Positions 6,817 to 31,102 of a stretch of 35,600 nt of DNA are shown piece by piece (the first letter of the stretch is position 1; each line of letters begins with the position of its first letter). Source of the DNA: an archaeon. Its GTDB lineage: Archaea; B1Sed10-29; JAJRYS01. A program made the position numbers and the translations under genes. The stretch lies in contig JAJRYS010000012.1 in NCBI GenBank assembly GCA_024275665.1, positions 1 through 35,600 of the forward strand, in the 5' to 3' direction. The notes below the pieces were generated by a model. The model was not told where the DNA came from. It did not search any database and worked only from the letters and a program-made list of their open reading frames with translations.

Positions 6817-6999
6817 TGGGTCCACCCGGATTTTCGTGGGGAGTTGCGCTTGCCCCAGCGATAGGCCGCTTCACGTGGCCTGCAGGGGTAGAGGGGGTGC
6901 AACCCCTCTTTCGAACCGGGGAGCTTCGCCATACTGCCAACAGCCATTGCTGTGGCTGTTGTCGTCAAGGCGACGTCCTAACCACTAGACCATGGACCC
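6817..6999 (-). tRNA. tRNA-Val(GAC) with two introns: 37/38 (6932-6962, 31 nt) and 59/60 (6831-6909, 79 nt)
   Basis: Acceptor GGGTCCA/TGGACCC-A73, anticodon arm TCGCC-TTGACG^T-GGCGA, T arm CCCGG-TTCGAA^T-CCGGG; BHB-like junctions; no encoded CCA. Confidence 0.9.
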
Positions 7000-7025
7000 T
7001 TAATATCTAAAAAATTCTTATCTAA

Positions 7026-7096
7026 TGGACTCGCTGGGAGTCGAACCCAGACTGCTAGCCTGCAAAGCTAGCGTGCTTCCATTACACCACGAGCCC
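7026..7096 (-). tRNA. tRNA-Ala(TGC), intronless
   Basis: GGGCTCG/CGAGTCC with G3:U70, CTAGC-TTTGCAG-GCTAG, CTGGG-TTCGACT-CCCAG. Confidence 0.95.
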
Positions 7097-8377: not shown

Positions 8378-8639
8378 AGCCACAGATGGGACTTGAACCC
8401 ACAACCTCCTGCTCTCTCAAACTGCTCCTGTTACTTGTTTTCCGCTGTGAAGCGGAAACCAGGCCACTTCAGCTTCAGCTGAACGTGGTCTTCAGATGTC
8501 GATTTGCGAACTGGGTAGTTCGCAAATTTGAAGACGCGTAGTCTTCAAATCTGGCTGTGGCAGTCGTACGAGGCAGGCGCTCTGCCATTGCTCCCACGAG
8601 CAAAGAAGTTTTGCTTCAGGCGAATTGAGCTACGGTGGC
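8378..8639 (-). tRNA. tRNA-Thr(CGT) with two introns: 15/16 (8588-8624, 37 nt) and 37/38 (8414-8566, 153 nt)
   Basis: Acceptor GCCACCG/CTGTGGC-U73 (one mismatch), D arm GCTC-AA^TGGCA-GAGC, CCTGC-CTCGTA^A-GCAGG, GTGGG-TTCAAGT-CCCAT; 72 nt after splicing; BHB central helices GCUC/GAGC and CUCG/UGAG. Confidence 0.9.
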
Positions 8640-8790
8640 ATAGATTGAGCTATTTTTACGAATAGGTTAATGTTTTTTTATTTAATTTAATATTTTAAGG
8701 CTTTTCTTGTTAGTGCTTTGCTTGGTTGAAACTTGTTAAACAATACAAATATATATCATAAAGAATACAAACGTATTAAAGGTGTTGGTA

Positions 8791-29940: not shown

Positions 29941-30011
29941 GAAAACTAACTACTAAGAACAAGAATTTAAAACCTGTTGCTTTGAACCTTTCCATGTTAA
30001 AAAACAGTGAA

Positions 30012-30273
30012 CGCGGAGGGCGAGATTTTCTCGCTGTCCAGCTGGCTTTTCCGCTGTTAAGCTGAACTAGTGCATGCGGCTTGAGCCGCGTGCGCTTAAG
30101 TGCCGGCTGGTTGCAGCCGTTCGAACTCGCGAGCCCCGAAGGGCACTGGCTTAGCAGGCTCGCCTCGCTCCGCCGCTCTTGGAAAAGCAGCGTGGGCGAA
30201 CCAGCGCAATACCATTGCACCTGCAAAGGTGCAAACCAAAGGGTTTGCCGTTTGCGGTCTATGCGACCTCCGC
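30012..30273 (-). tRNA. tRNA-Ser(GCT) with three introns: 15/16 (30215-30258, 44 nt), 30/31 (30159-30200, 42 nt), 59/60 (30026-30119, 94 nt)
   Basis: Spliced 82 nt: GCGGAGG/CCTCCGC-G73, CTGG^C-CTGCTAA-GCCAG, variable arm GCCC-TTCG-GGGC, GCGAG-TTCGAA^T-CTCGC; BHB helices GCAU/GUGC, CGCU/GGCG, UUCG/AGAA (one mismatch). Confidence 0.88.
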
Positions 30274-30382
30274 GCTTTTAGTATTGTAGTGTGCATGGTT
30301 TTAACCATGCGCGCTTTAGCGCCAGTCCGATAATGTCGGCTGTGCGGCCTCCGCGCTTTTAGTATTGTAGTGTGCATGGTTT
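30259..30382. repeat. Direct repeat of tRNA-Ser exon 1 plus upstream flank (30259-30301 and 30340-30382)
   Basis: 43 bp with 2 mismatches, 35 bp exact (30267-30301 = 30348-30382), offset 81. Confidence 0.92.
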
Positions 30383-30418
30383 AGTGTTGTATTTTTGTTC
30401 TTCTTTTCTTAAAAACTT

Positions 30419-31102
30419 TTACTCAATCATTATTCCTGCTGCTTCGTCAAGGGTTCCTACGCAGGTGATGTTTATTCCTTGCTCGTCTTGCACGAGCGGG
30501 CATTGTGCTTTTGGAATGAGGATTTTTTTCAAGCCGTATTCTTTTGCTGTTTTTACTTTGACTTCTAGTCCTGCTATTTCACCGATCCTGCCAGTGTCGT
30601 CAATGGTGCCTGTGATTGCCGTGTCTTGCCTGATTGTTTTGTTCTCTGCCAGGGCTATAAGAGCCACTGCTATTCCTGCTCCTCCTGAAGTTCCTTCAAT
30701 GTAATGTGCTTCTGCGCTTACTGTTATGAACAAGTCTTCGTTCCCAAGCGTTTCTCCTAAGTAATTTTCAACAGCAGTAATCACTATTTGCATTGAGTCT
30801 TGTAACTGCATGCCGTAAGAATGCAGTGTGGTTTCGAAGAACACCCTTCCCCTACCGGGTTTTTCACTCACTCTTATCCTCACAAGCTCGCCTGTTTCAT
30901 TATCTTCATGAATTCCTACTCCTATGACTGTAACTGAATGCTGTTCGTTGCAGTTAGTATTTTCTCTGGTTATTACTATCTCTTGCGTTGTCATTGATTG
31001 AGTGCTTTTTAAAGGGTTGTAGTTTATTATCATTCCTATTCCGAAGAATACTTCAAAGAGGATTATTATAATGAGTATTGCTATGAGTTTCTTTGCTTTC
31101 AT
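30419..31102 (-). CDS. Membrane-anchored stand-alone Lon protease (S16) catalytic domain
   Basis: N-terminal TM, PGRGRV, IEGTSGG (Ser), AITGTI..TGRIGEIAGLEVK (Lys), ILIP. Confidence 0.88.
   Translation of the reverse strand: MKAKKLIAILIIIILFEVFFGIGMIINYNPLKSTQSMTTQEIVITRENTNCNEQHSVTVIGVGIHEDNETGELVRIRVSEKPGRGRVFFETTLHSYGMQLQDSMQIVITAVENYLGETLGNEDLFITVSAEAHYIEGTSGGAGIAVALIALAENKTIRQDTAITGTIDDTGRIGEIAGLEVKVKTAKEYGLKKILIPKAQCPLVQDEQGINITCVGTLDEAAGIMIE

Follow-up and report, generated by a model that had tools for sequence, protein, structure and literature searches.

What is the piece of tRNA gene that lies immediately upstream of an intact tRNA-Ser(GCU) gene in an archaeon of the lineage B1Sed10-29, and which of the two copies of the gene's 5' end makes the tRNA? 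The locus occupies positions 30,012 to 30,418 on the minus strand of a 35,600-nucleotide (nt) stretch of DNA, referred to here as the window (contig JAJRYS010000012.1 of GenBank assembly GCA_024275665.1, positions 1 to 35,600), and its gene, which is interrupted by three introns, is missed by ARAGORN and Rfam. The explanation that is considered probable, with real room for doubt, is that the upstream copy is a relic 5' fragment of a lineage-specific, intron-associated rearrangement, and that the inner copy makes the tRNA. The relic would be a non-functional 5' piece of tRNA-Ser that consists of the leader and tRNA positions 1-12, apparently 1-15. The source assembly (G000) is a metagenome-assembled draft of 634 kb in 37 contigs, which are identified by C-numbers, with a GC content of 38.8% and a completeness of 91%; G001, G002, G003 and G011 are relatives, and extracted loci carry L-numbers.

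The duplicated 5' end and its paralog

The duplication is a direct repeat on the minus strand (30259-30301 and 30340-30382) of 43 nt, 41 of which are identical (95%), with a start-to-start distance of 81 nt. It comprises a 28-nt leader and tRNA positions 1-15, as an earlier note on this DNA had read it, and its longest exact stretch is 35 nt (leader and positions 1-7). A chance origin can be excluded, because a self-BLAST of the whole assembly returns no more than 17 local repeats that are on the same strand, at least 17 nt long and 20-600 nt apart. The arrangement is not that of a simple tandem duplication: 43 of the 81 nt recur, the 38-nt spacer between the copies (spacer X) is absent after the second copy, and no tandem array is reported by TRF. 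Spacer X contains no open reading frame (ORF). The parts of the duplicated region are as follows, where BHB stands for the bulge-helix-bulge motif of archaeal introns.

30355 to 30382, minus strand: upstream leader copy, 28 nt, identical to 30274-30301, with the 3' arm of hairpin C only
30340 to 30354, minus strand: exon 1', the upstream exon-1-like fragment, with C at tRNA positions 8 and 13
30302 to 30339, minus strand: spacer X, with hairpin A (30339-30327), hairpin B (30322-30311) and the 5' arm and loop of hairpin C
30310 to 30293, minus strand: predicted hairpin C, spanning spacer X and the start of the inner leader
30299 to 30304, minus strand: TTAAAA, located in the hairpin C loop and occupying -31 to -26 relative to the start of the inner tRNA (hand-counted); candidate TATA box of the inner gene
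30274 to 30301, minus strand: inner leader, 28 nt (repeat search)
30259 to 30273, minus strand: exon 1, tRNA positions 1-15 (ARAGORN on the joined exons, BHB, intron-less G002 ortholog)
30215 to 30258, minus strand: intron 1, 44 nt, at position 15/16 (BHB geometry; homologous intron in C28, G001 and G011)

Exon 1' reads GCGGAGGCCGCACAG and departs from the inner copy at positions 8 and 13, which are the U8C and U13C changes of the earlier note. Its GCAC forms four Watson-Crick pairs out of four with the GTGC of intron 1, while the native GCAT includes one G.U pair, so the claim that the upstream copy pairs with GUGC better than the native GCAU does is borne out. The small hairpins that had been described in the spacer are also recovered by folding: three are predicted in the stretch formed by spacer X and the first bases of the inner leader, and the 190-nt region that contains them folds more stably than every one of 200 shuffled versions (0/200 as stable, z = -4.8).

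The arrangement is not unique to this gene. A BLAST of the locus against its own assembly finds C28:14904-15081, with 83% identity over 171 nt, which is tRNA-Ser(GGA), and within it the interval C28:14916-15018 has the same parts in the same order as the window: an exon-1-like fragment, hairpins A-C, the leader, the true exon 1 and a homologous intron 1. The upstream fragment on C28 differs from its inner copy at positions 3, 13 and 14. The U8-A14 pair, which is nearly universal in tRNA, is therefore lost in both upstream copies by different changes, through C8 in the window and through G14 on C28, where a U3.C70 mismatch in the acceptor stem is added; the suggestion that loss of U8 signals decay gains support from this. 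Applied to the two modules, RNAalifold gives 21 pairs with one compensatory and one one-sided change, the compensatory pair joining fragment position 14 to the spacer as A-T in the window and as G-C on C28. Since the layout is common to a paralog at about 15% divergence, it appears to be older than the 95% identity of the repeat implies. The two leaders on C28 are barely alike, whereas those in the window are identical; because of this difference, and because the outer leader in the window has the 3' arm of hairpin C alone, the exact stretch of about 35 nt in the window was probably homogenised locally, at a later time.

The paralog also bears on the boundary of the duplication. The earlier note held that similarity stops exactly at the 15/16 splice site, which is literally so in the window but probably overstates the match. 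Positions 13-15 (30342-30340) form the base of hairpin A, as CAG/CTG in the window and CGG/CCG on C28, and the differences between outer and inner copies, pooled over the two loci, affect 3 of 6 sites in positions 13-15 as against 2 of 24 in positions 1-12; in the C28 paralog just one of positions 13-15 matches between the copies. Because these positions pair in hairpin A and the differences concentrate there, the true homology boundary is probably at 12/13, three bases before the splice site, in which case the "U13C" change belongs to the spacer element and is not an exon mutation.

Spacer X itself resembles, in local alignment, the 5' part of the gene's own intron 3, which interrupts the T-loop. 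The C28 spacer aligns with intron 3 at a score of 26, a level that 0 of 3000 random windows of the genome and 2 of 3000 shuffled sequences attained, and the window spacer at a score of 21, attained by 6 of 3000 and 18 of 3000 respectively. A derivation of spacer X from this intron family is probable on the basis of a similarity that is moderate, and the comparison of the spacer to an intron body in the earlier note is thereby strengthened. Introns of the family interrupt at least five further tRNA genes, again at this T-loop site.

Comparison with relatives indicates that the module is a local addition. The upstream fragment is absent from all five orthologous Ser loci that were examined, namely Ser(GGA) in G001 and G002 and Ser(GCU) in G002, G003 and G011. 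When the 225-nt region was searched by BLAST in G000 and 40 relatives (41 genomes), spacer X had no match in the 40 relatives, and the matches that relatives did give, in G001 and G011, covered the exon 1/intron 1 part only. Since orthologs without the module carry intron 1, this intron was not gained with it. At Ser(GGA) the upstream gene is homologous in G000, G001 and G002 (57% and 48% identity) and ends 16 nt before exon 1' in G000, whereas in G001 and G002 the distance from its end to the tRNA is 6 and 5 nt; from this spacing, the outer fragment would stand at the ancestral 5' end, and the spacer and the inner 5' end would be the added DNA. A Lon-like gene, as found upstream of the window gene, also lies upstream of Ser(GCU) in G003 and G011.

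The remainder of the gene was reconstructed by joining the exons 30273-30259, 30214-30201, 30158-30120 and 30025-30012 by script, which yields an 82-nt product that ARAGORN calls tRNA-Ser(gct); the introns of 44, 42 and 94 nt fall at positions 15/16, 30/31 and 59/60. The tRNA calls that ARAGORN and Rfam (at the gathering score) make in the intact window are limited to tRNA-Ala at 7026-7096. Intron 1 has a BHB with a central helix H of 4/4 pairs, bulges AG/A and AA/T, an outer helix h1 of 3 bp and an outer helix h2 with 6/7 pairs. In G002 an intron-less tRNA-Ser(GCU) runs from ...TCGCATAG straight into TGGTA, and because it is continuous across the junction, the 15/16 site is fixed independently. 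The native intron 1 therefore shows both features by which an archaeal BHB tRNA intron is recognized: its motif is of the full hBHBh' type, and an ortholog without the intron fixes the junction. The assembly has a contiguous gene for each of the four Ser anticodons. The other parts of the locus and its neighbours are:

30201 to 30214, minus strand: exon 2 (ARAGORN on the joined exons, BHB)
30159 to 30200, minus strand: intron 2, 42 nt, position 30/31 by the best BHB register
30120 to 30158, minus strand: exon 3, with the GCT anticodon loop, the variable arm and the 5' part of the T-arm (ARAGORN on the joined exons)
30026 to 30119, minus strand: intron 3, 94 nt, at T-loop position 59/60, a member of the genome's T-loop intron family
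30012 to 30025, minus strand: exon 4, with the T-loop end, the 3' strand of the T-stem, the acceptor 3' strand and the discriminator G
29999 to 30004, minus strand: T6 run 7 nt past the tRNA end, a likely archaeal terminator judging by its sequence
30408 to 30415, minus strand: TTTTTAAG box (TTTTTAA(G)), directly after the stop codon of the upstream gene
30419 to 31102, minus strand: upstream gene, Lon protease C-terminal domain, 227 aa
28915 to 29940, minus strand: downstream gene, FEN-1/XPG-type nuclease, 341 aa

The TTTTTAAG box is the one that had been placed near 30409-30416, and is a possible promoter for a transcript that spans both copies. The neighbours of the locus are Lon-like, FEN-1/XPG and SMC genes; the flanking genes are housekeeping genes, and the locus has no mobile-element genes.

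The order of events that is proposed begins with the arrival in the 5' region of the Ser gene of a hairpin-rich piece of the genome's own tRNA-intron family, spacer X, accompanied by a duplicate of the 5' end of that gene. The inner copy, which keeps U8 and A14 and the full helix-bulge-helix-bulge-helix for intron 1, would then yield the tRNA, from a promoter represented by the TATA-like TTAAAA 26-31 nt upstream, within spacer hairpin C. Homogenisation of the leader and positions 1-7 in the window would have followed. The Ser locus would on this account be one case of a genome-wide duplication of tRNA-gene ends beside intron-family sequence.

Several observations weigh against the relic interpretation. 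The module has been retained in two paralogs over about 15% divergence, with changes that preserve the hairpins, and both upstream copies carry the GCAC that matches the intron's GTGC perfectly; retention and GCAC could reflect selection rather than decay. When a 350-nt precursor that starts upstream is folded, the minimum-free-energy structure pairs the 3' acceptor strand with the upstream copy, not the inner one, so that if both copies were transcribed together the upstream copy would not be inert and would compete with the inner copy, a predicted conflict that favours an independent inner promoter. The use of the inner copy is itself read from the sequence. No integrase, Cas1 or reverse transcriptase that would explain a mobile process was found in the 91%-complete assembly; the proposal that the extra fragment is sequestered by the spacer did not pass a shuffle control in any of the seven modules; and the similarity of spacer X to intron 3 is moderate, with just two X sequences in existence.

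Duplicated ends at other tRNA genes

Ten of the 17 local direct repeats in G000 are duplicated ends of tRNA genes, and the Ser(GGA) locus and one 3' case on C36 were found in addition by other routes. At least ten tRNA genes are affected (Ser-GCU, Ser-GGA, four Leu, Gly-GCC, Lys-UUU, Ala-GGC and one further gene, with anticodons assigned by eye). The 5' fragments end at positions 8, 8, 13, 12-15, 12-15, 22 and 22, and are therefore not generally tied to intron sites. In the Gly case the 5' spacer includes a piece that is identical, over 34 of 34 nt, to part of the anticodon-loop intron of another tRNA.

The further duplicated ends lie at C12:5456-5960, C36:2575-2700, C36:5130-5260, C28:17497-17590, C33:7799-7990, C14:1111-1224, C14:2534-2865 and C1:1295-1420. 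They belong to at least eight tRNA genes (four Leu, Gly, Lys, Ala and one other) and have hairpin-rich, intron-like spacers of 35-180 nt. The 5' exon of the Leu gene on C12 is present in three copies, in a 94-nt tandem unit.

In front of the additional copies of 3' exons lies a conserved element, structured and about 60 nt long, that ends like GCGGTTCGG. It is found at C1:1339-1398, C33:7858-7922, C12:5899-5956 and C14:2555-2613 (minus strand), and at L057, L063 and L065 in G003, which belongs to a different genus. The element forms two hairpins, and nine copies from the two genera align with 16 pairs, 5 of which are compensatory; it has no match in Rfam. It also occurs in reverse complement after the extra 5' exons of two Leu genes, in copies that are 100% identical to each other, and at L057 in G003 it is the 3' part of a genuine T-loop intron. 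Identical 3' exons number two in a Leu gene on C33 and three in one tRNA of G003, and each of these copies keeps a valid 3' half-site (H 4/4, h1 of 5-6 bp). In the tRNA-Ala of G000 the inner copy is intact and the outer copy is decaying; since the tRNA-Ala(GGC) orthologs in G001 and G003 are without the element, the Ala module in G000 is a gain.

One functional role for such spacers, the sequestration of the extra exon fragment, was considered and rejected: in none of the seven modules did the number of fragment bases that pair with the spacer exceed that found with shuffled spacers (the smallest tail was 43/200). Searches of the assembly for tyrosine integrase (PF00589), Cas1 (PF01867) and reverse transcriptase (PF00078), at its completeness of 91%, found none. 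There is a single EndA gene, a 181-aa ORF on C37. A search for RNase P RNA (RF00373) at E up to 1 gave no hit, an absence that is provisional in an assembly of this completeness. Descriptions of such modules were not among the results of the literature searches.

Beyond the relatives, a spacer 19-mer had 18 matches in metagenomes, all of them chance matches in high-GC, bacterial-looking sequence without tRNA context, and 14 in genome contigs, all in named bacteria. A scan of genome contigs for the Lon-like protein gave 205 pattern matches and 0 confirmed ones, and viral contigs gave 0 matches for the leader-plus-exon pattern and 0 for the spacer pattern. Rfam, applied to seven module loci at E up to 1, returned nothing above threshold except tRNA, along with weak chance rows, and inspection of the spacer by eye showed neither the boxes nor the pocket of an H/ACA or C/D guide RNA.

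ARAGORN reports six tRNA genes in the whole assembly, because T-loop introns interrupt many of the others. Members of the T-loop intron family (position 59/60, about 100-190 nt) begin like CAGCCGTATCCGGCTGG and finish like GCGAGAAA; they lie at C8:~53910 (minus strand), C22:~11530, C28:~17690, C29:~2890 and C35:~5045, and in the window at 30026-30119. A further multi-intron tRNA gene that was missed is at 8380-8640 of the window (minus strand), with the anticodon loop CTCGTA (Thr-CGU by eye) and a long anticodon-loop intron that shares modules with the T-loop family, and another, which begins GGGTCCATGGTCTAGTGG, is at about 6820-7000 (minus strand), 26 nt after tRNA-Ala. A leader motif, CACACTACAA / CATGCACTAC, recurs 10-25 nt upstream of different tRNA genes in G000 (window 30274-30292; C26 ~10791, minus strand; C29 ~2792; C36 ~4298) and recurs within the third intron of tRNA-Ser(GCU); it may serve as a signal for processing or as a promoter-proximal one.

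Repeats of other kinds accompany tRNA genes in the relatives. At L018 (G002:C30) the intron-less tRNA-Ser(GCU) is flanked, near the contig end, by two perfect inverted repeats of about 40 nt, which may reflect either a genuine inverted duplication or a contig end that was assembled as a palindrome. At L023 (G011:C3) two copies of the 12-nt sequence TTCTAAACAATG, in direct orientation and separated by 3 nt, lie immediately before tRNA-Ser(GCU), the second of them overlapping the first base of the tRNA. In the sister genus G001 (L010/L017, L021, L085), structured repeats such as AAACCGCGTGCGGTTTACGG, followed by CAGGGGAT...AATCCCC, lie past tRNA 3' ends, and are a different tRNA-associated repeat family.

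Alternative explanations

The alternative that survives best, although it is unlikely, is that the module, however it arose, is a selected structured cassette, in which the fragment and hairpins A-C are kept for the sake of the inner promoter in the loop of hairpin C, which is palindromic; they may in addition bind a protein or insulate the tRNA from the upstream gene. Its appeal lies in the persistence of the module in two paralogs with one compensatory and one one-sided change, in a hairpin C stem that is longer by a C-G pair on C28 (T-A in the window), in the position of TTAAAA at -31 to -26 of the inner start, and in a folding stability that lies far below that of the shuffles. The covariation, which comes from two sequences only, is nevertheless thin, and the absence of the module from all five orthologous loci means that the relatives do not need it in order to express their Ser tRNAs. 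Other 5' modules in the genome are moreover without a TATA-like box at that distance, as judged by eye.

A little less credible again is an integration scar, left by an element whose attachment (att) site was the leader and 5' end of tRNA-Ser and which was later deleted down to 38 nt. A direct repeat of a tRNA-gene end beside an intact, reconstituted tRNA is what was found here, and such repeats are a classic integration signature, known from SSV1, pNOB8-type elements and the Caldiarchaeum tRNA-Thr fragment (PMC3293823); the repeats of 17-66 nt at other tRNAs in this genome are also within the att range. The rest of the evidence points the other way, since there is no ORF between the repeats and no integrase nearby, the assembly yielded no tyrosine integrase, viral contigs gave no match to spacer X or to the att-like sequence, and the spacer resembles a host intron family and not foreign DNA. 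About ten tRNA genes with different spacers would in addition call for many independent integrations, each followed by near-total deletion.

That the upstream copy works as an alternative 5' exon is quite improbable. On this hypothesis a precursor transcribed from the TTTTTAAG promoter would be spliced from exon 1' to exon 2, with removal of 125 nt, and would give either a C8/C13 isodecoder or a tRNA in which C8 is edited. The composite intron, 30339-30215, does have a central helix GCAC/GTGC of 4/4 pairs, as does that of the paralog, together with bulges AG/C and AA/T; ARAGORN still calls the in-silico product a tRNA-Ser, and in the minimum-free-energy fold of the long precursor the upstream copy is the partner of the acceptor 3' strand. 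The outer helices of the composite motif, however, consist of an h1 of 3 bp and no h2 (pairs at the first, fourth and fifth of eight places), although relaxed BHB motifs may still be cut by endonucleases of broad specificity. The product of composite splicing would also be without the conserved core of U8, A14 and a paired acceptor: U8-A14 is broken differently in the two paralogs, the acceptor mismatch is added on C28, the D-arm is distorted in the ARAGORN drawing, and positions 13-15 act as part of the spacer hairpin. The missing h2 and the loss of U8-A14 in both paralogs speak against the two competing 5' exons that the earlier note proposed. Its interpretation as a whole is partly supported: the remark on decay has support, and neither the alternative exon nor trans-splicing (see below) has. 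A different splicing event, which would remove an intron between equal positions of the two copies, was rejected by hand inspection, the self-complementary GCGC, CGCG and GGCC/GGTC lacking flanking helices. A naive scan of the locus for BHB motifs returns 83 candidates, too many to discriminate, and was not used.

The hypothesis that the fragment is a split-tRNA 5' half, trans-spliced to a 3' half encoded elsewhere, is largely refuted and very improbable. A leader, a 5' fragment and an intron-like flank do have the look of a 5' half-gene, and split tRNAs exist in Nanoarchaeum, Caldivirga and Desulfurococcales (PMC3218864). A scan of the assembly for the complement of the spacer, which left aside the antisense strands of the two Ser loci themselves, gave a best run of 17 (G.U included), compared with 14-18 in six shuffles, so that a 3' tRNA piece with a flank complementary to 30302-30339, which the earlier note had suggested as a check on its free 5' fragment, is not present above shuffled controls in this 91%-complete assembly. 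An intact gene for the same tRNA (30273-30012) adjoins the fragment, and the genes for all four Ser anticodons are contiguous. Least credible of all is an assembly artefact, which was also named in the earlier note, in which a repeat was collapsed or made chimeric in a metagenome-assembled genome: the draft has 37 contigs, but the 81-nt repeat unit is shorter than a typical read, the diverged paralog on C28 has the same layout with different sequence, and comparable structures occur at about ten further tRNA loci and in another genus (G003).

Significance and relation to known systems

How archaeal tRNA genes gain introns or become split is an old question, for which the integration of mobile elements and the transposition of introns have been proposed as routes, and for which direct intermediates are rare. 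The source assembly offers many candidate intermediates, with at least ten tRNA genes whose duplicated 5' or 3' ends are joined to pieces of the genome's own intron families, and the Ser(GCU)/Ser(GGA) pair shows that a module of this kind can be retained while its sequence changes. Should the modules turn out to be stages in the gain or loss of introns, that process could be tested within one lineage. The fact that standard tRNA finders report six tRNA genes here implies that the annotation of such lineages is badly incomplete.

A more speculative view, which is doubtful as an account of the Ser locus, is that the locus is a frozen step in a so far undescribed route of archaeal tRNA intron birth. 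An intron-family element would land beside or inside a tRNA gene with a duplicate of a terminal exon, which would create two alternative terminal exons, each with half a BHB splice site; decay of the inner copy would then turn the spacer and the dead copy into a new intron. Possible stages on the 3' side are the Ala gene of G000, the multi-exon genes of C33 (Leu) and G003, and the T-loop intron in G003, and the upstream Ser exon, with its perfect central helix, would be a candidate future exon or a failed one. The snapshot of duplication-driven intron evolution that the earlier note suggested is a possibility for the Ser locus, with which the intron-like spacer and the membership of a set of at least ten cases agree.

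Intron gain by segmental or tandem duplication has reportedly been described in eukaryotes, by Hellsten and colleagues in 2011. The modules are similar in that a repeated exon end which bears a splice site could create an intron between the copies; they differ in that the eukaryotic introns are spliceosomal while those considered here are BHB introns, and use of the outer Ser copy is hypothetical.

In the Thermoproteales, related introns are said to have spread among tRNA genes, a process that Fujishima and colleagues reportedly termed "intron transposition" in 2010. The present genome is comparable in having one family at the T-loop of many tRNA genes and pieces of it in the spacers; here the intron-family pieces come with duplicated exon ends, which the 2010 work is not known to describe.

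Integration at tRNA genes, with its attL and attR sites, shares with the modules a direct repeat of about 17-66 nt from a tRNA end and the preservation of an intact tRNA, but there is neither an element nor an integrase here, and the spacer is like a host intron. The split and tri-split tRNAs of Nanoarchaeum equitans and Caldivirga maquilingensis (PMC3218864) likewise have a 5' tRNA piece followed by an intron-like flank; the Ser fragment has no complementary partner and adjoins an intact contiguous gene, and is thus not a split gene.

The closest published case is that of Caldiarchaeum subterraneum, in which a fragment designated tRNA-Thr-F lies upstream of tRNA-Thr-II (Sugahara et al. 2012, PMC3293823). 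In both, a tRNA 5' fragment and its flank form a direct repeat upstream of an intact, intron-containing copy, the repeat boundary is close to an intron position, and the structure is read as a recent rearrangement that disrupted a tRNA gene. In the Caldiarchaeum locus 1.8 kb and a recombinase gene separate the copies and the intron at the boundary is new, whereas at the Ser locus the copies are separated by 38 nt with no ORF, no integrase was found, and the 15/16 intron is old, being present in orthologs that are without the fragment. Two further features set the Ser locus apart from the Caldiarchaeum case: its spacer resembles a T-loop intron of the host, and its layout is common to two paralogs and has counterparts at about ten tRNA genes of the same genome.

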